64,000 nucleotides of DNA from a virus. Where the stretch lies: positions 41,430-105,429 of the IMG/VR virus record IMGVR_UViG_3300014257_000015; one strand, written 5' to 3'. The translations under genes and the position numbers were made by a program. The notes beneath the pieces were generated by a model. That model saw only the letters and a list, made by a program, of their open reading frames with translations, was not told the DNA's origin and searched no databases. The stretch's first letter is position 1. The number at the start of each line of letters is the position of its first letter. Of the stretch, positions 1 to 59,829 are shown in pieces.

Positions 1-6
1 GTCAGC

Positions 7-1197
7 GTGGTGAAGAAGATCGAAAAATTCGCTGAAGAGCAGAAACAAAAACTCGAAGCAGAAGAAAAAGAAGACTCTGAAGATCTTTCAGCCTCGAAGC
101 CGAGCGAAGGTGGCGATGAACAAGGGAAATCAAAGGCTGGCGGGTTGGAATCGGAAACACAGAAACAAGACGACGGCGAGTTGATAAAAATCGAAGTTGC
201 AGAAGGGGCATTAGGCGAATCGGATACAGCAGACATCAAAGATGAAACAAAAGAGCGAATCAAGGAGATGGTGCGAAGGGACATCGATCTCAACAACCGT
301 TACATCCCGCACCCTGCAGCCGTAGCGAGAGACAAAGTCATCAAACCATTAGGTGACATAGTTGATTACAACCGCTGTCGCGATATCGTTTCTGATCAGA
401 TAACAGGCCTTCGCGGAAAACTTCTTTCGCTCATTCGTTCCAGGCAACCATCGGTTGAATTGTCGGGGCGTCGTCACGGTAAATTGGACACTAGACGTCT
501 GGGAACAATTGCTTCAGGAAACACCAATGTGTTCAAGGTTGAAATTGAAGGTGAGAAGCTGGACACAGCAATCACTGTGCTGATTGACATGTCTGGTTCA
601 ATGGGCAGCGGGCATTGCCCAGGACACCCAGCACACCAAGCCAAATTGATGGCCATTGCGTTGGCAGAAACCTTTGAAGCGCTCCAAATACCTTTTGAAG
701 TGATTGGATTTGAAACTGATACACCAGAACGATGCGTTGGAAAAGAGGAAATAAGTGATGTGTATTCTCGGTATTCTCCGATGTTATACCATGAGTTCAA
801 ATCGTTCGATCAAAAGCACAGAACAGTAAAGCAACGGATGTCTGACATTGCCGGCTCTTTAGACAATGACGACGGCGAGGCGCTTCTGTACGCTGCGAAG
901 CGATTGATCCAACGTGAAGAATCGCGCAAAATCATGTTCGTTCTTTCAGACGGTTGCCCGGCCACCAGAGATGCATCGCACGAAAGGCTAAATGGACACT
1001 TAGTCGAGGCCATCCAGCAGGCAGCATCATGGGGGATTGAGATGTTTGGAATAGGTGCATGCTCTGATCACGTCGAACAGTTCTATACCAAGAAGTTCAA
1101 CAGCAGTTGTATCGTAGTCAAGGACATCAAAACATTGGCAGTCGATGTGTACAAACTGATGCGCGATCGACTCCTGTCGACGAATAGGAGTGTGTGA
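7..1197 (+). CDS. CobT-like VWA (MIDAS) domain protein, probably truncated at the window start
   Basis: MIDAS motif LIDMSGSM, then NDDGEAL..AAKRL and RKIMFVLSDG; acidic linker upstream; typical partner of a phage CobS/MoxR AAA ATPase. Confidence 0.8.
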   Translation: MVKKIEKFAEEQKQKLEAEEKEDSEDLSASKPSEGGDEQGKSKAGGLESETQKQDDGELIKIEVAEGALGESDTADIKDETKERIKEMVRRDIDLNNRYIPHPAAVARDKVIKPLGDIVDYNRCRDIVSDQITGLRGKLLSLIRSRQPSVELSGRRHGKLDTRRLGTIASGNTNVFKVEIEGEKLDTAITVLIDMSGSMGSGHCPGHPAHQAKLMAIALAETFEALQIPFEVIGFETDTPERCVGKEEISDVYSRYSPMLYHEFKSFDQKHRTVKQRMSDIAGSLDNDDGEALLYAAKRLIQREESRKIMFVLSDGCPATRDASHERLNGHLVEAIQQAASWGIEMFGIGACSDHVEQFYTKKFNSSCIVVKDIKTLAVDVYKLMRDRLLSTNRSV

Positions 1198-2381
1198 TGG
1201 CAGTGAACTTCAAAGACGGCTACACAGTGCCATCGCACGTTCGTGAGATGTATCCTGATTTGGAGAAAAATTTGCTGCCATTGATTAAACGTCGAGCACA
1301 ACAAATGCGCCATGCCATACCCGGGATCGACGTGGAAGATGCAATACAAGAGGGGCGTCTTGCTTTGTTGTCTTGTTTGACTCGGTATGATGCTAACAAG
1401 TGTTCGTTTGATTTGAAACGCTACGTGTCCAAGACATTACGCAACACATATGCTATGATGTTGTACGAGGCGTTGGCTCAACGTCGCACTCCTCGGGCAC
1501 ACATACAAGACGGCGAAGGGAATTGGGGTGTTGCGCCGCGTGTCCCGATTAGTCTTGATGAAATGTTGACGTACGAACCTGTTGAAGGCGATCTCAGCCC
1601 CGAGGCGCGCATCATCGAGATGGAGCGATTGAGCTCATGCATTCGAATCAAAATGAAAATGATGGAGATGTTGACCGGGCGAGATCTTGATGTGTTCAAG
1701 TCGATGCTTGAAACGTCGTGCGAATTTCTGGAACCAGAAGAGATCCGACGCATCATAATCAGAGAGGAGCAAAGGAAACAGACGGGCGAACCGCTAAAGC
1801 ACGATGGGTGCTTAGCAGCAGTGGACGCGGCCGGCGGCGACGTAAATTCATTGTCCAATATTTTGGTTGCCAATTATCTCAACATCAACAAGAATATGAT
1901 TGATTGGTCCATCAACAAAATTCGCATGCTGTTCTCCAAATTGGTGAAACAAGAAGAAGTTGAAGCGCCCAATGTCTTGGAGGCGATGGAAAAGCGTGGC
2001 CTTCCAGCAATACAAGTGAATCGAGGAACGCACTTCAGCGCAAGTTTCGTTCGTTCCGTGATGACTGTGCGGAATTTGCGTGACGAAGAGCCGCACATAG
2101 AAATACAGAGCGCATCGCATCGGGGTTGCACAAATTATTGGATGCGGAGGATTGAGCGCCACACGTGGGGGGCGGTGTTGGTCCTGAAACGCGGCGGTGA
2201 ATTTGTTACCGCTGTGATTGAAGGTCGTTTGAATTTGTTGACTGGCGACGTATTCAGCCTTGAATTGGGCGGGGCGAGAGATAAACTGCCGGTTGAATGG
2301 TATCAACAGTTGTCCAGAAGATTGTCGGAGGTGTACGGTGGCCAGGAAAATACGGATGCCACATTGCGTCGGGCAGTATGA
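1194..2381 (+). CDS. RNA polymerase sigma-70 family factor (SigH/ECF-like) with C-terminal extension
   Basis: Region 2-like EDAIQEGRLALL..L.RYD...F..Y; region 4-like HTH LSNILVANYLNINKNMIDWSINKIR. Confidence 0.7.
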   Translation: MMAVNFKDGYTVPSHVREMYPDLEKNLLPLIKRRAQQMRHAIPGIDVEDAIQEGRLALLSCLTRYDANKCSFDLKRYVSKTLRNTYAMMLYEALAQRRTPRAHIQDGEGNWGVAPRVPISLDEMLTYEPVEGDLSPEARIIEMERLSSCIRIKMKMMEMLTGRDLDVFKSMLETSCEFLEPEEIRRIIIREEQRKQTGEPLKHDGCLAAVDAAGGDVNSLSNILVANYLNINKNMIDWSINKIRMLFSKLVKQEEVEAPNVLEAMEKRGLPAIQVNRGTHFSASFVRSVMTVRNLRDEEPHIEIQSASHRGCTNYWMRRIERHTWGAVLVLKRGGEFVTAVIEGRLNLLTGDVFSLELGGARDKLPVEWYQQLSRRLSEVYGGQENTDATLRRAV

Positions 2382-3225
2382 GCCGAAGAATGATGTGTGC
2401 AATGGAGATCCGTCGAAATCGAAGGATACCGAAGATGGTGTGCCGTGTTGGTGTCGCGATAGATGCATAGCACTTCGGTTGTGGTGTGGTGAGCGGGGGA
2501 AAGAACCGGATCACTTTGTTGCCTTGCAAATTGTGAAAGAAAATGGTGTAGAGATGACAGCAGCCGTGCCAAAGATGAGCAACGAGATATTCGCAAACAC
2601 GCTCGATAAAACCATTGCCAATTATGGCGTAATCAACGGACGCATCACCAGACCAAACAAGGGCGGTGCACCAAAGAAGAAAATACAAGCACCCGCGCCA
2701 ACCAGAGGGAAACCTGGCCCGAAGAAGGGGAAGCGGCCTTGTGTTGAGGCAAGAGTGAAATCGCGCCGGGCAGTAATAGCACGTGCGAAAGCTCGACGAG
2801 AAGAGTGCAAGTTGTTGTTCGGCCATTTCAAGAAACATCTGGAGGTGGCCTTGCATGGACAGAAGTGGAGTGCTAGAAATTCAGCTATTGCTGCTGATAG
2901 GCTGTACATTAAAGACAGGTTTGACAATTCCGGCTACGCTACGGTGTATTGCAAAACGAGGATAGGGCGGGATACGCCAGTGGTGACAGCAAGGCTGAAA
3001 ACGGCGACGTTGACCTTGATGATAGGGTTGCCGGTGACTTTAGAACAGCTGGAATCACAGATAGGAAAGGCCACGTGCAAAAAGCTATCCCCATACAGAA
3101 TATTGGACGGATATTTCATCACAGCCGTGAACAACGTCGACAAAGAGCGTGCTGCTTTGATCGCAGAGACTATCGGCCGACTGGTGAAATCAGGTATTAT
3201 AAATTTGCCTGCCGCCGCGCAATGA
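2260..3225 (+). CDS. Hypothetical basic protein with N-terminal Cys cluster (true start probably near 2356)
   Basis: 321-aa ORF between the sigma-like gene and the hairpin; C..C..CWC.DRC cluster; Lys/Arg-rich middle. Confidence 0.6.
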   Translation: MNWAGREINCRLNGINSCPEDCRRCTVARKIRMPHCVGQYEPKNDVCNGDPSKSKDTEDGVPCWCRDRCIALRLWCGERGKEPDHFVALQIVKENGVEMTAAVPKMSNEIFANTLDKTIANYGVINGRITRPNKGGAPKKKIQAPAPTRGKPGPKKGKRPCVEARVKSRRAVIARAKARREECKLLFGHFKKHLEVALHGQKWSARNSAIAADRLYIKDRFDNSGYATVYCKTRIGRDTPVVTARLKTATLTLMIGLPVTLEQLESQIGKATCKKLSPYRILDGYFITAVNNVDKERAALIAETIGRLVKSGIINLPAAAQ

Positions 3226-3241: not shown

Positions 3242-3295
3242 GGGGCGAGCGATTGGATTCTTGGGCCTTGGCCGGTTCTCTCCAACGCTCGCCCC
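3242..3295 (+). ncRNA. Intergenic stem-loop whose loop is antisense to the shared translation-start motif (candidate regulatory sRNA)
   Basis: Arms GGGGCGAGCG(A)TTGGA 3242-3257 and TCCAACGCTCGCCCC 3281-3295; 23-nt loop contains TGGCCGGTTCTC (3269-3280), the reverse complement of GAGAACCGGCCA. Confidence 0.55.
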
Positions 3296-3313: not shown

Positions 3314-4276
3314 ATGAGAAAACGTGTTGTGATAGTTGGGGGTGGAGTCTCAGGGCTCATAGCATCGTATGTGTTCAGCGGAATCCCCGGTGTAGAAACA
3401 AGAGTATTTGAAGAGAAAACAACCGGCGGCGAATTTCTAGCTGGCGGCTTGAAGTACATCCACCACACAGAAGCAATGGTGGATATGTTTGATGAGCTAG
3501 GCCTGTGTCACTCAAATTTCATGGTGAATGGTGGCATATTGTTGAGCGACGTTGTTCAGCCGTACCCAAAGTGCTTCCAAGACATGGCACCCGAACGAGC
3601 CGCCCGCATCCAGGATGACCACTGGAGGAAGACGCGCCGATCAGAGCCGGGTTCTGATTCCAAGAAAGCAATGAATGATCCGGCGAGCACGAAGCCAAGG
3701 CAAGCCCTTCGCTGTGACTTTGTGGATATGATCAATGAGCTATCAGATTGCGCAGCGATCACCAACGCAGCCGTAGTTGAGATCAACCAAAATGATTTGC
3801 TGACCAGCCAGAAAGAACGGGTGCTGTTTGATTTCGCGGTGGTGACTTTGCCGCTGTGGGTGATTAGGGAATTGGTGAAGTGGTATGTGCCGCACGGTAT
3901 GGCTATGGCCCTCAACGTGGCAAAGGTGAATGTTCGCGGGGATCGCTTTGCGCGCTGGGATTACGTCTACACGCCCTACACGCCGTCCAATTGTGTCCAT
4001 CGATTTTCACCGGTGGCAGGCGGATATTCGGTTGAGACGAATGGTGAATTGAATCTTGGTGAAATCGAGTCTGACTTGAATTTCCTTTGGCCTGAAGGTT
4101 GGGCAATGATGGAACTGAAAGAGGGGCTAAAGGGCCACCTGCTTTCATTGGACACTAAGCCTGATTGGCCGCGTAACATAGCACCAATCGGAAGGTTTGC
4201 AAAATGGGACAGCCGGGCAACCATCGATGTAGCGTTGGAAGACTCGATAGCGTTAGCCAAGAGGTGGCTTGGATGA
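3314..4276 (+). CDS. FAD-dependent oxidoreductase (Rossmann fold, UGM/PPO-like superfamily)
   Basis: N-terminal VVIVGGGVSG...VFEE...GG dinucleotide-binding motif; C-terminal IGRFAKW. Confidence 0.75.
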   Translation: MRKRVVIVGGGVSGLIASYVFSGIPGVETRVFEEKTTGGEFLAGGLKYIHHTEAMVDMFDELGLCHSNFMVNGGILLSDVVQPYPKCFQDMAPERAARIQDDHWRKTRRSEPGSDSKKAMNDPASTKPRQALRCDFVDMINELSDCAAITNAAVVEINQNDLLTSQKERVLFDFAVVTLPLWVIRELVKWYVPHGMAMALNVAKVNVRGDRFARWDYVYTPYTPSNCVHRFSPVAGGYSVETNGELNLGEIESDLNFLWPEGWAMMELKEGLKGHLLSLDTKPDWPRNIAPIGRFAKWDSRATIDVALEDSIALAKRWLG

Positions 4277-25055: not shown

Positions 25056-25149
25056 CAACGCAAAGGAGAACCGGCCAAAATCCAATCAGCCGAAAAACCA
25101 ATCCACCAAAATACAGAAGAGCCAATTAAAGATCCAAGGAGAACCGACA

Positions 25150-25857
25150 ATGGCAAAGAAGACCAAATTGAAGACGAAAGAAGAACCGAAGAAAGCCACC
25201 AAGGCCAAGGCCGTTGAGCATAACGCGCGCGTCGAAGGCCACGTTGATCACCCTGCCCATCCGAAATGCCCAGAGTGTGGGCGTGCCATGTTCAAATGGA
25301 TGGGTGTGAATTCAGAATACGCCAACAAAACACCCAAAAAAGAAGACCCTTGGGCATATTGTCGAAACAAGGCGTGCTCGCTATTTGGTGAAGATCAGTC
25401 AGAATCGACCCCAAAAAAGGCCAAAAAAGAAGACAAAGGCGAGGAAGTTACAAAGAAAAGCAAACCCAAAGAGAAGGGCCTGGATGAAGAGCTGGAGGGC
25501 TTTGGCGCGGATGATGAAATAGACGCCATCGACGAAGACGACGAAGACGACGAGGGCGACGAAGACGATGATGAAATAGACGCCATCGACGACAACGACG
25601 AAGACGACGAGGGCGAAGAAGTCGTGCAAGACGAAGATGGCGATGAAGAAGATGAGGTTGACGATGATGCCGCGCAAATAGCGTTGGCCAATTGTCGAAA
25701 ACGCATCGTCAAAGCCATTCGAAAAGGCGGGAATAAAGCCAAGGACGCCATCCAACTCGCGCTATCTGTCCTTCATGGTGAAACGTCCATCAAACAAGTC
25801 AACGAAATGATCGATGAATTCGACCTCGAAGATGAATACGGCTTGAAGAAAAAATGA
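25150..25857 (+). CDS. Hypothetical protein with Zn motif and long acidic tract
   Basis: GGAGAACCGAC-A-ATG; CPEC..C...C; duplicated DDEIDAID acidic repeat. Confidence 0.65.
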   Translation: MAKKTKLKTKEEPKKATKAKAVEHNARVEGHVDHPAHPKCPECGRAMFKWMGVNSEYANKTPKKEDPWAYCRNKACSLFGEDQSESTPKKAKKEDKGEEVTKKSKPKEKGLDEELEGFGADDEIDAIDEDDEDDEGDEDDDEIDAIDDNDEDDEGEEVVQDEDGDEEDEVDDDAAQIALANCRKRIVKAIRKGGNKAKDAIQLALSVLHGETSIKQVNEMIDEFDLEDEYGLKKK

Positions 25858-26027: not shown

Positions 26028-26056
26028 TTGACTTCCAATTCAATTGGAGTTACAAT
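26028..26056 (+). promoter_or_regulatory. Sigma70-type early promoter with palindromic spacer
   Basis: TTGACT-TCCAATTCAATTGGAGT(17)-TACAAT. Confidence 0.85.
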
Positions 26057-26084
26057 CTATTTATACGTTGAAGGAGAACCGGCC

Positions 26085-26255
26085 ATGACATCAACGCAAG
26101 CAAATTTCGGGTTGAACGGCGTGATCACATCCAGGCACGTAGTAACCAACATGCGCGACATCGTTTCTGGGTTTGGTTGGGGTGCTTGGTTTCGGTGTTT
26201 GAAAGTAGCTGCCACAGGGAAAAGAACAACCTTCCTAGCCACAATCTGGAAGTAG
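26085..26255 (+). CDS. Small hypothetical protein
   Basis: GGAGAACCGGCC-ATG start. Confidence 0.6.
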   Translation: MTSTQANFGLNGVITSRHVVTNMRDIVSGFGWGAWFRCLKVAATGKRTTFLATIWK

Positions 26256-26266
26256 GAGAACCGGCC

Positions 26267-26428
26267 ATGTCACAGCTAACGAAAGAATACATCGAACACC
26301 AACTTCAAGAACAGGGTTTGCGTCTCGCGACGTTGAACGACAGCGGTTGGTATCTGAAGGTGTATGACATCAACGAAGAGATTGTCACAGTTTGGGTGAC
26401 CGACATCACCAAGAACGAAAACAACTAG
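26267..26428 (+). CDS. Small hypothetical protein
   Basis: GGAGAACCGGCC-ATG start. Confidence 0.6.
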   Translation: MSQLTKEYIEHQLQEQGLRLATLNDSGWYLKVYDINEEIVTVWVTDITKNENN

Positions 26429-27486: not shown

Positions 27487-27507
27487 GGAAGAAAAGGAGA
27501 ACCGGCT

Positions 27508-27867
27508 ATGAAAGAAAAACCAACCATATTGATTGTTGACGATGATCCAACACTCGCGCGCACTTACGCTCGGATGTTCAGGAAACAGTTCACAGTAATC
27601 ACATCCAGCGATGTGAACGAGGCAGTGGCGTTGTTACGAGGCGGTGACATCGACATCTGCACTTCGGATTGGCGGATGCCAAACGGCGGTGGCCGAGCAA
27701 TCATTGATGTGGCATCAGTGCCCGTTGTTTTGGTCACGGGAAGCTCCGAAGACCTCACATTGGAAGATAAATTGAAGGTGTCGGCAATTGTCGATAAACC
27801 GTGCAACGCAGACGAATTGATGGGTGCGGTGTTTGCGTCCTTGTTGCTTCCTCGGGATGTGGGATGA
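27508..27867 (+). CDS. Stand-alone response regulator receiver domain
   Basis: ILIVDDD, SDWRMP (phospho-Asp), VTG, DKP. Confidence 0.88.
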   Translation: MKEKPTILIVDDDPTLARTYARMFRKQFTVITSSDVNEAVALLRGGDIDICTSDWRMPNGGGRAIIDVASVPVVLVTGSSEDLTLEDKLKVSAIVDKPCNADELMGAVFASLLLPRDVG

Positions 27868-28756: not shown

Positions 28757-28797
28757 GGGTGAATTCACAAAGTACACGAAAGCAGGAGAACCGGCCC

Positions 28798-29364
28798 ATG
28801 TTTAAAGCAAACGATCACTTCCGAAGCGCAGCAACAACTGTGAGAAACGCTCCCAGCCCGAGTGCAGGGAAGTTTACGTTTGATTCAAAAAACGTGACAG
28901 GGTTGTTTGACGCCGCGCGTGCACAAGCGGGCGTTGAAAATGTTCGACCGTCCACCAGACAAGAGTTCAAGCACTCCACAGACGCATCATCTGTTTGCGA
29001 GGATAACCGCGAAACTCATTCCAAAGCAATGGCCCAACAAACCAGGATGCAAAAGCTTTTGGAATCAATTGCTGCCTCTCAAAAGCGCAAAGAAGAGGAG
29101 CAGCGACGGCGGATTGTATCGTCCACCACTCCGACTGAAGTGGCTGGAATAAAAATGGCCATCGAGCCATTGAAGAGCAAAGATCGATGCGATTTAGATG
29201 CGGACACAGAAAACGCTATTGCCTTGCTGTGTGAACTTTCTAGTGCACACTCCCAAGCATCTGAATCCATCCAGAACATCGTTGATTTGAAAAATCATCT
29301 CAATGAGGTTCTGATTGCGTTGAAAGAGATCGATGGATTGTTCAGCCTGAATCTCAAATGGTGA
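28798..29364 (+). CDS. Hypothetical protein
   Basis: GGAGAACCGGCCC-ATG. Confidence 0.6.
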   Translation: MFKANDHFRSAATTVRNAPSPSAGKFTFDSKNVTGLFDAARAQAGVENVRPSTRQEFKHSTDASSVCEDNRETHSKAMAQQTRMQKLLESIAASQKRKEEEQRRRIVSSTTPTEVAGIKMAIEPLKSKDRCDLDADTENAIALLCELSSAHSQASESIQNIVDLKNHLNEVLIALKEIDGLFSLNLKW

Positions 29365-29403: not shown

Positions 29404-29424
29404 GGAAGAAAAGGAGAACCGGCC

Positions 29425-29772
29425 ATGTTAACAGAGCACCAATTCATTCTTGACACCGTCCACCAAGACCCAGAAACCAAACAATCATACAAGATTGTGT
29501 GGGAAGAGAAGATTCAAGGCGGAAAAGATGTTGAACGCCGTGTGGCAGTCGAAGAGATGGTTGTAGATGAAAGCAAGGGAACTGCTAAGTATCGCGTGAT
29601 CACCGCTACGTGCTCATTGGATTGTGCAGCACCAAAATGGGCGCCAAGAACAAATTGGAAGGACACCTACGAGGCGGCGTTGGAACGCGCACAAGCTGTG
29701 TATTCTTGGAATTGTGATTACGCCCACGAACATGGATACAAGACGCCTTGCGAAATCATCGCAGGCAAATAG
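29425..29772 (+). CDS. Hypothetical protein
   Basis: GGAGAACCGGCC-ATG. Confidence 0.65.
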   Translation: MLTEHQFILDTVHQDPETKQSYKIVWEEKIQGGKDVERRVAVEEMVVDESKGTAKYRVITATCSLDCAAPKWAPRTNWKDTYEAALERAQAVYSWNCDYAHEHGYKTPCEIIAGK

Positions 29773-33230: not shown

Positions 33231-33250
33231 ACAAACGAGGAGAACCGGCC

Positions 33251-33454
33251 ATGATAGAACCAAAGCAGAAGAAAGACAGGGTGGAAAATCTCCATTATAA
33301 GGTGGTTTTGAGCGAGGAAGATCTTTTCACGCTGAGCCAATCAAAGCTTGAACCGAATGCACAATTGGTCGTGCAAAAAATACTTCAAACCGCGATTGAG
33401 ACCAAACGCATCACGCTGAAGCCGTTCAAAGAATCGGTGCTAGGCGAGAAGTGA
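33251..33454 (+). CDS. Small hypothetical protein
   Basis: GGAGAACCGGCC-ATG. Confidence 0.6.
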   Translation: MIEPKQKKDRVENLHYKVVLSEEDLFTLSQSKLEPNAQLVVQKILQTAIETKRITLKPFKESVLGEK

Positions 33455-45640: not shown

Positions 45641-45669
45641 TTGACTTCCAATTCAATTGGAGTTACAAT
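45641..45669 (+). promoter_or_regulatory. Sigma70-type early promoter
   Basis: 45641-45701 is identical to 26028-26088 (61 bp, from -35 through ATG). Confidence 0.85.
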
Positions 45670-45697
45670 CTATTTATACGTTGAAGGAGAACCGGCC

Positions 45698-45916
45698 ATG
45701 AAAAACATCGACGTCAAAGAAGAAGACATCGGCAAAAAAGTCATTCTTCCTGCTGGAACGAGATATGTTTCAAGAATAACCGCAGAAGGCACGAGTTATT
45801 CTCACACCACAAGCGAAGTTGCTGCTTTGGTGGTGGCGCCTGCCGACGCTGATGTTGAAGGTGATCTCCCGACGTTCCAATTTGGTGGCGAATTCAGACT
45901 GGTGGATTTGGGATGA
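45698..45916 (+). CDS. Small hypothetical protein
   Basis: GGAGAACCGGCC-ATG. Confidence 0.6.
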   Translation: MKNIDVKEEDIGKKVILPAGTRYVSRITAEGTSYSHTTSEVAALVVAPADADVEGDLPTFQFGGEFRLVDLG

Positions 45917-46275: not shown

Positions 46276-46302
46276 CACCTAAACACAGAAGGAGAACCGG
46301 CC

Positions 46303-46524
46303 ATGACAGTAGGCGAATTGAAAGCAATCCTAGAAGACCTCGAAGACGACGTTGAAGTTGTGATGCAGTACCAACCCAATTATCCGTTGAAGTCTGAAAT
46401 CGCGGGCGCCACTTTGAAATCAGAAGTGGAAGGTGAGAAACCGGAATTCGATGAGGTTGACGTGCTGTATCTCGTCGAAGGCGAGCAAATAGGGTACGGG
46501 AACAAAGCGGCTTGGAATTTCTAG
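46303..46524 (+). CDS. Small acidic hypothetical protein
   Basis: GGAGAACCGGCC-ATG; MTVGELK..LE.L..D. Confidence 0.65.
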   Translation: MTVGELKAILEDLEDDVEVVMQYQPNYPLKSEIAGATLKSEVEGEKPEFDEVDVLYLVEGEQIGYGNKAAWNF

Positions 46525-46767
46525 GCCGCTGTCAAACGTCGAAGGAGAACTAGTCATGAAACCATACGGCGTCAAAAGAAAAGACAGCTGGTGTTGCCCT
46601 GGGCACGACAAATTCCCTCGGGAAACCTACAGAAACAATCGAAGCAAAAGGGCGCAAACCCGTGACACCAAACTTGCGCACGGGATCGCCCGTTCTCGTG
46701 CTCGACTTGAGTTGAATCGACTTGTTTCTGAGGAAGCTTGAAACCAACGCAGAAAGGAGAACCGGCC

Positions 46768-47370
46768 GTGAACATACCGATTACAAACATAACGCACTTG
46801 GTGGATGTCGCGAAGACCTATTTGAAAGCACAAGGCGTCGAAGAGCCGAGTGAAGATCAACTCGCGGCTGCTATACATACGATCAGAACGCTCAACCCAA
46901 TGCAGTTGAAAGGCGACTACACGCGCCCCGGTCACCACATCATTCGCATCCCAGACGGAACGCTTGCAGAGCGGATTTCGGACAGCTCTAATGAGTTGGC
47001 AGTGATGGGTCTGGCGTCCCAGTACACCCTTGGAAAGATCATTAGGGTGACTGTGAAGAATTCAGTGGTCACCGTGCACTATGACCTCGGATGCATCATG
47101 CTTTTTCATTCGACGGTGATGGAGATAGATGTTCTTTGGGGTGCCACCCATTGTATCCCTGGTGACATCGTGGATATGGCGCGCAGCCACGGGAAGTTTC
47201 GAGGAATCCACCACCCTTTCACGCATGCCAACGTTGATGTGTATAGCTATCAGCACGGGCACATCGACATCAAAGACCCAGACGTTGTGCGACCGAATGT
47301 TCCAGCATATCGCGAGGTGGCGATTTTGTTGAATGACAAGATGACCGTCGAGAAACAGTTGGTCCAATGA
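46768..47370 (+). CDS. Hypothetical protein
   Basis: GGAGAACCGGCC-GTG. Confidence 0.6.
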   Translation: MNIPITNITHLVDVAKTYLKAQGVEEPSEDQLAAAIHTIRTLNPMQLKGDYTRPGHHIIRIPDGTLAERISDSSNELAVMGLASQYTLGKIIRVTVKNSVVTVHYDLGCIMLFHSTVMEIDVLWGATHCIPGDIVDMARSHGKFRGIHHPFTHANVDVYSYQHGHIDIKDPDVVRPNVPAYREVAILLNDKMTVEKQLVQ

Positions 47371-51157: not shown

Positions 51158-51186
51158 TTGACTTCCAATTACAAATAGACTATGAT
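51158..51186 (+). promoter_or_regulatory. Sigma70-type promoter (repeat family)
   Basis: TCGATTTTGG-TTGACT-TCCAATTACAAATAGAC-TATGAT. Confidence 0.8.
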
Positions 51187-51216
51187 CCCCGTATAACTGA
51201 AAAAGGAGAACCGGCC

Positions 51217-51522
51217 ATGACATGTTCACGCAAACACACAGTTCCACAAATACCAGACGAATATTGGAAGTGTTCGAAATGTGGCGAGGTGGATAACTTT
51301 GTCCTTGAACCGCCTGAAGGGATGGAAGACAAGGATGAAGATTGTCCATTGCTACATGATGACGATGATTGTGTCTGCTATTCGTGTGGAAATGCGACGA
51401 CAGCCAAGCGCTTCGCCGCTTCGTTCGCGAAGAAAAATGACTTAGTCGCTTGTCCTTGTTGCGCGGGCAAGGGCCTATTGCCGTCGAAGAAAGCCGCCTC
51501 GATCAAGGAGAAGTTGAAATGA
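51217..51522 (+). CDS. Cys-rich hypothetical protein
   Basis: GGAGAACCGGCC-ATG; CSKC, CYSC, CPCCAGKG. Confidence 0.6.
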   Translation: MTCSRKHTVPQIPDEYWKCSKCGEVDNFVLEPPEGMEDKDEDCPLLHDDDDCVCYSCGNATTAKRFAASFAKKNDLVACPCCAGKGLLPSKKAASIKEKLK

Positions 51523-57766: not shown

Positions 57767-59829
57767 TGGATCAATGCTCTTGTGGGCATCGGTCGATAGT
57801 GCTGGATCGGTTGATGGCAGGGTTGACGGCGGCCGATGAGATTGTGGCTAAGGCCGCCGCAGTGTCTGAGATATCGCAAATTGCTCGCATCGAAGTTTTG
57901 TTGAGAGAATACCTTTTATCCAAATGGAATGTTTTGTCATCGACAGCGTTGAAAATTGCTGTAAAGCACGCTGAATCCCTATCAAAATCTGAGAAGATCT
58001 CGAATGACATCGAGAAGGTGATGAAGCGATTCCCAGGCGAGGTGAAAGAACGTCTCGCCTTTGACGTTGGGCGCATCTACAAGCTGTCGAGGATTGCTGC
58101 TTGGAAGAAGGTGAAGACGCGGAAAGGGAGTCTGTCATATGACATGACATACTTCATCCCAACTCAAAAAGCCAAAGCAGAACTGTTACCGTCATTCGAT
58201 GTTCAGGATGTGAAGGCGGTCGAATCAATCACCAAATACCAATACTTTTGGATTGGCGATCATTACGAACGTACAGTGCGCGACGAAATACGCGACACCA
58301 CGAAGAAAGTGATGTTAGAAGCGGGGCAGGATCGAACAGCGGCCGGAAAGCTCATGTCAACCGCTGTGAAAGAAAAGCTGGATCATGTAAAGATGCCATC
58401 TGGCTGGACCGGAACCCAGAGGGCCTACTATGAAGGTCTGACCGCCAACGCAGCAACAGTGGCGAGGGCATATGGAAATCTGCGATCATTCCGCGAGGGC
58501 GGGATCACCAGGTATGAAATCAACAACCCAAATGATGATCGTACGTGCCCGGTTTGTGCGCACATGGACGGGAAGGTTTTCACCGTCGAACACGGATTTA
58601 CCCAAATTGAAAAAGAAATGGGCACCATTGTTACCAATCTAAAAACGCACACCAAAAACGTCCACCCATGGCTTAGCCCAAAACAACTAAGAGAGATCTC
58701 ACCATCGCCAGGAAGAATCGAGGGGAAGGCGGGGGAAAAAGATTCACAAGCCCTAGCCGCCGCTGGACAAGCTTGCCCGCCATACCATTTTCTGTGTCGT
58801 TGTGCGTTGGACATCAGCGAAGAGATTGGGAGCTGGTCTGAAGTTCCCGAAGAAGACGTTGTGCCAAAAACTCCAACCATCACCCCGGGTGATCTGAAAC
58901 CGTCTGCTGTTGACAAGATGTTGTTCAATATGACCACGTCTGAGGTTGAAAGCATAGAGTCAATTGGCGGGAAGAACACCAATGCGGCTAAAAAAGTCAC
59001 GTTGAAAACACAGGGCGGCGAGAAAATAGAAGGCGTATGGAAACCGGCTAGTGGCGAAGTTGATGAACTTCGGATTGGTGTGAAGGGTGGAACATACCAC
59101 CAACGCGAAACAGCAATGTACGAGATAGACAGAATGATGGGTGGTGATACGGTCATCCCGCCAACAATTTCGCGCCATATGGATGACAAATCAGGCCCAG
59201 GAAGCTACCAATTGTGGTCCAAAGGCGCTGCCACAGAATCAGAGGTGAGCAAAAAATACAAAGTGATGCCGGATTCTTGGAAAGAAATGAGGTGGCATGA
59301 ACTTCCGTCCGCCCGCCGAACGTTCTTGATGGATGTCATTGGGGCCAACGATGATAGGCACCAGAACAACGTGTTGTTCAAAGTCCTGAAGAATCCCGCT
59401 GTTAAAGATAAATTGGAAGACACAGTGAAAATGGTAGCCATTGACAACGGGCTATCCTTCCCCAACACAGAGATGGCTCGTTTTTTGTTCCCTGGCGATG
59501 CTTATGGAAAGAACGCAGCGGCGTTTTTGAACTTAGATGTGGAATCAATGAGATTAGTCAGAAATTTGAAGATCCGAGAAGTGGCAAGGACACTATCTTC
59601 ATTTGAAGACATAGACGCCAAATCAATCAAATCCACGCTGGTCAGAATAAAGGCGTTGCAAAACGACCCTGATGCAATAACCAAACTAAGCGGCAGCCAA
59701 CCCGCGCTAAAAGTGGAAAGATTCGTTGAGCAGTCCTTGCGTTATCCGGCAGATTTGGTGGATGAAAAATCGTTGAAAGAGATTGACGAAATCATGAAAG
59801 ACATCATCTCAGCCCGAGATAAACAATAG
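57766..59829 (+). CDS. MuF/head morphogenesis protein fused to a PI3K/PI4K-like kinase domain
   Basis: MuF D.RTCPVC..MDG...PPYH..CRC; kinase VWKP..GE, RE.A.Y.ID, PPT, GSYQ.W, NDDRH..N, AIDNG. Confidence 0.82.
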   Translation: MDQCSCGHRSIVLDRLMAGLTAADEIVAKAAAVSEISQIARIEVLLREYLLSKWNVLSSTALKIAVKHAESLSKSEKISNDIEKVMKRFPGEVKERLAFDVGRIYKLSRIAAWKKVKTRKGSLSYDMTYFIPTQKAKAELLPSFDVQDVKAVESITKYQYFWIGDHYERTVRDEIRDTTKKVMLEAGQDRTAAGKLMSTAVKEKLDHVKMPSGWTGTQRAYYEGLTANAATVARAYGNLRSFREGGITRYEINNPNDDRTCPVCAHMDGKVFTVEHGFTQIEKEMGTIVTNLKTHTKNVHPWLSPKQLREISPSPGRIEGKAGEKDSQALAAAGQACPPYHFLCRCALDISEEIGSWSEVPEEDVVPKTPTITPGDLKPSAVDKMLFNMTTSEVESIESIGGKNTNAAKKVTLKTQGGEKIEGVWKPASGEVDELRIGVKGGTYHQRETAMYEIDRMMGGDTVIPPTISRHMDDKSGPGSYQLWSKGAATESEVSKKYKVMPDSWKEMRWHELPSARRTFLMDVIGANDDRHQNNVLFKVLKNPAVKDKLEDTVKMVAIDNGLSFPNTEMARFLFPGDAYGKNAAAFLNLDVESMRLVRNLKIREVARTLSSFEDIDAKSIKSTLVRIKALQNDPDAITKLSGSQPALKVERFVEQSLRYPADLVDEKSLKEIDEIMKDIISARDKQ

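Follow-up and report, generated by a model that had tools for sequence, protein, structure and literature searches.

The locus lies near the start of the window, the stretch of 64,000 nucleotides analysed here, which forms the last 64 kb of a 105,429-bp IMG/VR record with direct terminal repeats. The record has a G+C content of about 50%, and its + strand carries nearly all genes. A long hairpin marks the 3' end of an upstream regulatory operon that encodes VWA, sigma-like, and 289-aa proteins. This operon starts approximately 3.9 kb 5' of the hairpin with a TTGACT-N17-TAGAGT promoter directly before the VWA gene, whose start carries a short sequence tag. The same -35 box is found in promoters 17 nt 5' of three further tagged starts. 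The operon downstream of the hairpin contains genes for FAD-oxidoreductase-like, MazG/HAD, aminotransferase, ThyX-like, and kinase proteins. In the 289-aa protein, a very basic linker connects a Cys4 motif at the N-terminus with an alpha/beta domain at the C-terminus. Its structural model has a pLDDT of 89, and a Foldseek search against the PDB found no significant match to the protein. The best alignments of the C-terminal domain, at Z of about 7, are to the DNA-binding domain of T4 MotA and to YjbR/frataxin-like folds; the MotA alignment (Z 7.1 and 6.9, rmsd about 3.8-4.0 over about 108 residues) is a middling one. Together with the sigma-like gene before it, the predicted fold suggests that the 289-aa protein may belong to a phage transcription module. 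An earlier sequence-only reading had considered this basic, Cys-containing neighbour as an RNA chaperone; nothing points to that role, and the weak resemblance at Z 7 is to a DNA-binding domain.

The outer stem of the hairpin has 15 bp, mostly G-C, with one bulge (A3252), and encloses 23 nt (3258-3280). An 88-nt context around it folds with -41.8 kcal/mol (z -2.4). The enclosed top is itself structured, and the anti-tag stretch within it, which contains the exact complement of a 12-mer found at gene starts, comprises the 3' half of a hexaloop, the 3' strand of a short inner helix, and a pyrimidine bulge adjoining the outer stem. By direct reading, C3267 also lies opposite the G of the start-codon ATG, with one U-U mismatch. 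The sequence-only reading had already described the stem (3242-3257 with 3281-3295) and its 23-nt loop, the exact reverse complement at 3269-3280, and the additional pairing of C3267, and all of these hold, with A3252 bulged out. Its description of the loop as unpaired holds only in part, since 3263-3267 pair with 3274-3278 below the hexaloop.

With its G+C-rich stem the hairpin resembles an intrinsic terminator. However, the loop of such terminators is short (about 3-8 nt) and is replaced here by 23 nt, and by 10-49 nt in relatives; moreover, GATCCATCGAGC instead of a T-run stands directly 3' of the stem in the window. A consensus terminator scan did not report the hairpin, and no promoter-like site was found beside it on either strand. 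Since both a T-run and an adjoining promoter are missing in this phage, a discrete small RNA would need to be released by processing. An Rfam scan of the window gave no match at the gathering score; around the hairpin, only chance-level rows appeared at E values up to 10, and the C4 model (RF01695) was not matched. Two further interpretations of the site were rejected. A gene start on the minus strand is contradicted by the lack of a start codon after the inverted copy and of a conserved ORF among relatives, and cis control of the ribosome site of the downstream FAD gene by the fact that this gene is untagged in every relative. The FAD gene of this phage has no evident Shine-Dalgarno (SD) sequence.

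Table 1. Features of the hairpin locus and tagged sites, in window coordinates.
Feature	Position	Strand	Basis or remark
CobT-like VWA gene; start 584 nt 5' of the window, with promoter and tag-like start (TGAGGACCGGCC+ATG)	1-1197	+	
Sigma-70-region-2-like gene, same operon as VWA gene	1194-2381	+	Pfam Sigma70_r2, E 1.3e-4, below cut-off
Conserved 289-aa gene, always 5' of the hairpin	2356-3225	+	true start 2356
Whole hairpin (outer stem, internal loops, inner helix, hexaloop)	3242-3295	+	folding, relatives
Outer stem, 5' arm, A3252 bulged	3242-3257	+	
Inner helix (3263-3267/3274-3278) with hexaloop TTGGCC (3268-3273)	3263-3278	+	covariation, 20 relatives
Anti-tag stretch	3267-3280	+	3269-3280 exact complement of the 12-mer
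Outer stem, 3' arm, followed by GATCCATC instead of a T-run	3281-3295	+	
FAD-oxidoreductase-like gene, first in nucleotide-modification operon	3314-4276	+	anchor for finding relatives
Tag copy without following start codon	25065-25077	+	longest complement of the hairpin top (13 nt)
Tag variant (2 mismatches) and ATG, 235-aa gene	25138-25152	+	
Sigma-70-like promoter, TTGACT, 17 nt, TACAAT	26028-26056	+	directly 5' of tagged start
Tag and ATG, 56-aa gene	26073-26087	+	17 nt 3' of promoter 26028-26056
Tag and ATG, 53-aa gene	26255-26269	+	
Tag (1 mismatch) and ATG, 119-aa gene	27496-27510	+	
Tag, one additional C, and ATG, 188-aa gene	28785-28800	+	
Tag and ATG, 115-aa gene	29413-29427	+	
Tag and ATG, 67-aa gene	33239-33253	+	
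Tag and ATG, 72-aa gene	45686-45700	+	3' of promoter 45641-45669
Tag and ATG, 73-aa gene	46291-46305	+	
Tag and GTG, 200-aa gene	46756-46770	+	
Tag and ATG, 101-aa gene	51205-51219	+	3' of promoter 51158-51186

The tag takes in the SD core and the entire spacer, and it reaches into the start codon by one or more bases. The exact 12-mer occurs eight times on the + strand of the window and once on the - strand, and extending the count in both orientations to the whole 105,429-bp record leaves these numbers unchanged (8 forward, 1 reverse), so that the proposed uniqueness of the inverted copy applies to the entire genome. By chance, one strand of 64 kb should contain an exact 12-mer about 0.004 times. 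If one mismatch is allowed, the window contains 11 sites on the + strand and one on the - strand, as compared to 0.34 expected from shuffled sequences, none of which (0/100) reached 12. If up to two mismatches are allowed and ATG or GTG has to follow at a distance of 0-1 nt, a wider word, GGAGAACCGGCC, marks 13 genes. Eleven of these lie in the accessory region (window 25-51 kb), and the other two, just 5' of the window, head the operon that ends in the hairpin. In all, the tag stands before about 15 genes, which are non-structural. An extended match to 16S rRNA was rejected as the meaning of the tag, because the tags of related phages diverge outside the GGAG core. When IMG/VR was scanned for exact copies of the 15-mer tag, only single chance matches came up.

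Several tagged starts share their promoter as well. The one at 26028-26056 has an identical copy at 45641-45669 and a related copy at 51158-51186. The stretches 26028-26087 and 45641-45700 are identical cassettes of approximately 60 nt, each followed by an unrelated small gene; the promoter spacer in them is filled by the palindrome TCCAATT-C-AATTGGA, and a leader and the tag follow. The tag copy at 25065-25077 is situated just 3' of a promoter-like site, and a diverged tag with ATG is found 73 nt further on.

Comparison of the flanking genes with 50,697 phage records retrieved no match at the nucleotide or protein level, and a first scan of IMG/VR with a single protein gave none either. Relatives were obtained by an alignment-based scan for the FAD-like protein, which yielded 14 IMG/VR loci and 52 metagenome loci. 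This protein has more than 170 metagenomic homologues, many of them on contigs of 100-110 kb. About 30 distinct related uncultured phages (approximately 100-115 kb) possess a long hairpin between the homologue of the 289-aa gene and the FAD gene, and every gap between these two genes contains one. The stems measure 12-27 bp and differ in sequence throughout, yet they always pair. A T-rich tail follows the hairpin in 20 of 31 relatives but not in this phage. On the 3' side of the hairpin top a consensus is recognizable, (C)TTGG(C/T)C followed by 2-4 letters and T(C/T)TCC, which abuts the 3' arm. In two relatives (L185 and L124/L201) the hairpin lacks an evident anti-tag.

The tags of relatives were determined independently of the hairpin. 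Ten related records were examined whole, tags were discovered de novo from start-codon contexts alone while the hairpin was ignored, and inverted copies were located only afterwards. This procedure, together with shuffled loops as controls, replaced a genome-wide antisense scan with 9-mers, which was swamped by codon repeats, and a loose matrix for sites near start codons, which was noisy. Each of five relatives with whole or large records (G001, G002, G004, G005, and G006) turned out to have its own start tag, and in each the sole exact inverted copy of that tag is in the hairpin or, for G005, beside it. The tag of G001, GGAGAACGGAC, has 12 letters inverted in the loop. In G002, G(G/A)AGTCAGCC+ATG has 13, including the complement of the ATG. 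The G004 tag, GGAGATCGAA, occurs ten times exactly in forward orientation and once in reverse, in the loop, whereas the single reverse copy of GGAGATCAGC in G005 (7 forward) is just 5' of the hairpin. G006 has four forward copies of GGAGTCCAAA and an inverted copy in the loop. When 500 shuffled loops were compared with the real one in G000, G001, G002, G004, and G006, only 0-1 reached the observed number of matches. Consistently, a set of shorter loci (L212, L213, L190/L220, L214, L216, L217, L230, L193, and G008) contains complements of 9-13 nt to the respective own loop at gene starts 2-6 kb upstream. The homologous VWA gene is tagged in G000, G001, G002, and G005, about 4 kb 5' of the hairpin, and several relatives have a second tagged start about 5.4 kb upstream. 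In G007, G009, and G010, which have neither the gap nor the hairpin, tag discovery gave no tag.

A tag and a loop that change together between relatives are expected of a trans-acting base-pairing sRNA, and this co-variation was found. The sequence-only reading had asked whether loop and motif co-vary with compensatory changes: the tags indeed change with the hairpin top, and the structure that presents the complement covaries too. Hairpin and tag are either both present or both absent in these phages. A loop match by chance is very unlikely, because different motifs are matched at the same spot in at least ten lineages. In G005 (L129:9880-9905) the inverted tag shares bases with the preceding gene's stop codon and is partly paired in a small stem; it is a different placement of the same element. 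G002 also has, on the minus strand (L143, oriented position 76129), a tag-like site with ATG in the usual promoter-like context, which looks like a genuine leftward gene start and a rare exception to the one-strand layout.

Alignment of whole hairpins with MAFFT and RNAalifold gave no consensus structure because their spacing varies. The inner helix was therefore analysed in fixed-length pieces from 20 relatives, selected by the hexaloop word alone. The helix is 4-5 bp long across relatives, beneath a conserved hexaloop. Over the five positions on either side of the hexaloop, 82% of the cells are paired, versus 52.5% in shuffled data, and 34 cells versus 10 are changed on both sides. The covariation score is 0.88 as compared to 0.28 after shuffling; none of 500 shuffles reached the observed values, and slid controls stayed at or below 0.29. 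Thus, compensatory changes conserve the inner helix as well as the outer stems, as would be seen in a trans-acting base-pairing sRNA. For the pairing of loop and target, duplex energy and opening energies were added up, since RNAcofold does not handle a loop that pairs with a linear strand. Duplexes at tagged starts reach -23 to -28 kcal/mol; the median for 139 gene starts is -14.6 kcal/mol. Opening costs about 7 kcal/mol for the hairpin top and 0.5-5 kcal/mol for the targets, which leaves a net energy of -11 to -15 kcal/mol. The three-part make-up of the anti-tag suggests that pairing nucleates at the hexaloop and then displaces the inner helix. The hexaloop contains UUGG, a match to the YUNR U-turn pattern known from antisense recognition loops.

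On these grounds the element is real, and strong comparative support points to a variant of antisense control. The reading that we favour, with a probability of roughly 0.6, is that the hairpin acts as a 3'-end or processed antisense element, which would pair with tagged ribosome sites, those of its own operon included, and damp their translation. In this view, an early regulatory operon for CobS/CobT-like proteins, a sigma-like protein, and the putative DNA-binding protein of 289 aa would end in a conserved, structured RNA element. After transcription, termination or processing would probably leave a nuclease-resistant hairpin. Its hexaloop UUGGCC might nucleate on GGCCA(U), where a tagged message has its start codon. 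From there, pairing could extend along the 3' strand of the inner helix, which is short, and reach the UCUCC that adjoins the outer stem. The outcome would be a duplex of 12-15 bp covering the ribosome-binding site. Translation, and perhaps stability, of all tagged messages would be lowered together, including those of the first genes in the operon that ends in the hairpin, and a single RNA could thereby exert negative feedback on, or shut off, a non-structural regulon of about 15 genes. We infer that the RNA accumulates, pairs in the cell, and represses, and likewise its timing and stoichiometry. A base-pairing RNA would be expected to look like this, a nested stem-loop whose two helices are kept by compensatory change. 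Moreover, the copy at 25065 is the best complement of the loop although it lacks a start codon, which fits selection for pairing and not for ribosome binding.

Some features count against an antisense function. Opening the hairpin top costs energy since the complement is partly sequestered, a 12-bp helix within a 23-nt loop would be topologically strained, and one RNA must serve about 15 kinds of messages. The complement outside the hairpin in G005 and the two relatives without an evident anti-tag belong on this side as well. The central idea of the sequence-only reading, one RNA element that presents the complement of the start motif, is supported nevertheless, with the correction that half of this complement is buried in the inner helix. 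Other parts of that reading have to be abandoned or weakened. It had derived the RNA from the transcript of the replication module, but the hairpin closes the upstream regulatory operon at its 3' end and is terminator-like in most relatives. The postulated temporal switch lacks support, because the operon that would produce the RNA has the same promoter type as the targets and its own genes are tagged. This layout looks like feedback and not like a clean early-to-late switch.

Alternatively, the pairing may be real but purely intramolecular. The 3' hairpin would then fold onto the tagged sites of its own operon transcript of about 4-5 kb, for autoregulation or for protection of the message by joined ends, and the other tagged genes would merely share a strong ribosome site. 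The tagged VWA start about 4 kb upstream in four phages, the promoter directly 5' of it, and the second tagged start about 5.4 kb upstream in several relatives would all suit such folding, and P1 c4 RNA also acts on its own transcript. Yet 11 of the 13 tag copies lie 22-48 kb away in other transcription units and are still identical and complementary to the loop, and the best complement is a distant site without a start codon. We therefore consider a strictly intramolecular role unlikely. It also appears distinctly unlikely that a phage protein such as the 289-aa protein recognizes the tag as double-stranded DNA, with the inverted copy as an operator. Co-evolution of protein and sites would yield lineage-specific motifs too, the adjacent 289-aa protein combines a basic linker with the MotA-like C-terminal domain, several tags are 17 nt 3' of the -10 box of a promoter, and oriented 13-bp stoperators exist in Cluster A mycobacteriophages (cited in PMC3203893). 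However, a DNA site would not have to combine, in each copy, an SD core with a start codon at constant distance and on the coding strand, to include the ATG complement found in some loops, or to keep a constant inverted placement within a nested stem-loop with compensatory changes. The fold match, with Z under 8, is also silent on specificity.

The direction of control might also be reversed. In that case abundant tagged early messages would pair with the top of the nascent terminator, alter termination or processing, and so set the read-through into the nucleotide-modification and replication operon. The hairpin is indeed positioned exactly on the boundary of two operons and is terminator-like in 20 of 31 relatives. 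Complementarity ends at the outer stem, however, so that the stem of 12-27 bp and the T-run would stay untouched, and this phage has no T-run at all; such a mechanism is quite improbable. We regard it as highly improbable that the hairpin is an ordinary terminator or RNase III processing site whose loop match, by chance or as a relic, is functionless. Hairpins between operons are common, and the succession of upper stem, internal loop, and lower stem recalls the RNase III sites of phage T7, but the rarity expected of an exact 12-mer, and the fact that at least ten lineages repeat the match at this spot with differing motifs, speak against a match devoid of function.

Base-pairing RNAs that block ribosome sites are well known, and several phage systems share traits with the proposed antisense hairpin. 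The c4 RNA of P1 and P7 is a structured phage RNA cut from the transcript of its target, and its loops pair over the ribosome-binding site and block translation. The hairpin likewise has a loop complementary to a ribosome-binding site (SD, spacer, and A of ATG) on the same transcript. It has no sequence or structure match to c4, though, and c4 controls one operon (icd-ant) for immunity, whereas about 15 dispersed genes would be targeted here by an element at the 3' end of an operon. P22 sar and other cis-encoded phage antisense RNAs pair over a phage ribosome-binding site too. In contrast to the hairpin, which is encoded elsewhere, on the strand of all genes, with a match of 12-15 nt, sar originates from the strand opposite to its target and is fully complementary. 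T4 RegA shows that a single phage product, bound at the initiation regions of many early messages, can lower their translation, but RegA is a protein with a loose sequence preference, while an RNA effector and an exact tag shared by the targets are proposed here. Lastly, sRNAs derived from 3' UTRs, such as CpxQ and SroC, consist of an mRNA 3' end with a terminator hairpin and a U-tail. Their seed is usually single-stranded and 5' of the terminator, not in the top of a terminator-like hairpin as here, and a corresponding T-rich tail is present in the 20 relatives mentioned above and absent from this phage.

The closest parallel to the tag is provided by the start-associated sequences (SAS) of Cluster K mycobacteriophages, described by Pope et al. 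2011 (PMC3203893). Both are asymmetric repeats of 12-13 nt that contain an SD core, are longer than 16S rRNA can pair with, and are placed a few bases 5' of the starts, mostly ATG, of 11-19 non-structural genes, in one orientation and with a single inverted copy away from gene starts. Motif sequence, phage lineage, and host are unrelated, however. The SAS consensus GGGATAGGAGCCC differs from the tag, Cluster K descent is not indicated by any match among the 50,697 phage records, and the inverted repeats of extended SAS were not seen in this phage. The tag is thus an analogue of the Cluster K SAS and not a member. The original description reported a single inverted copy in each K1 genome and did not decide between RNA and protein as the binding partner of the SAS (PMC3203893); published SAS work assigns no function to the inverted copy. 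The role of SAS was still called unknown in 2024 (PMC11373665) and was left unexplained in 2025 (PMC12699233). A closer inspection of Adephagia (JF704105, record about 58661-58713; L237:33662-33714) revealed that its inverted SAS is the 10-nt loop of a hairpin of about 20 bp on the transcribed strand. This hairpin resides in the gap between genes 92 and 93, the reported start of late transcription (PMC11373665). Validus and Mdavu have kept the complementary loop, Amgine has a degenerate version of it, and Keshu, MacnCheese, and Yuna have none. Phages of the Keshu/MacnCheese type and Yuna retain SAS despite the missing loop, which implies that the tag does not depend on such an RNA there.

The papers searched contain no description of a phage RNA directed against a tag of the phage's own making at a dozen or more of its genes, and to our knowledge no equivalent has been published. 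Private tags combined with a single anti-tag hairpin might represent a general, repeatedly evolved phage control system in which one structured RNA governs the translation of a non-structural gene set. Such a system could be the missing explanation of the Cluster K SAS and, in Adephagia, might bring about a late shut-off of tagged early genes; we put forward this generalization tentatively and at somewhat less than even odds. If correct, such a system would do with RNA what T4 RegA and similar translational repressors do with protein, and it would offer cheap common control of unrelated accessory genes, as a newcomer would need nothing but the tag. The question of the SAS, open since 2011, becomes testable in Adephagia, which is cultured and genetically tractable, has the same layout, and has published RNA-seq data. 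For annotation, tags and a matching hairpin could define regulons in genomes of uncultured phages from sequence alone.

Repeated words that were considered as tags and rejected in two of the relatives without the hairpin deserve mention in their own right. The word in G009 (L165-L166, record about 70,600-98,300) belongs to a promoter-like cassette. Approximately 12 such cassettes precede genes, each consisting of AAAAAGTTCTCGAC, 1-2 nt, and TGTGGAAGCA, and they are themselves preceded by TCCACAA-like words; they look like a phage-specific promoter family. The word in G010 (L168 and L172) is a coding repeat of 18-21 nt of the GAGGAAGCGGCCGAGGAT type, which forms runs encoding an acidic, Glu/Ala-rich sequence. 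These runs are found at both ends of the record, inside the terminal repeat.
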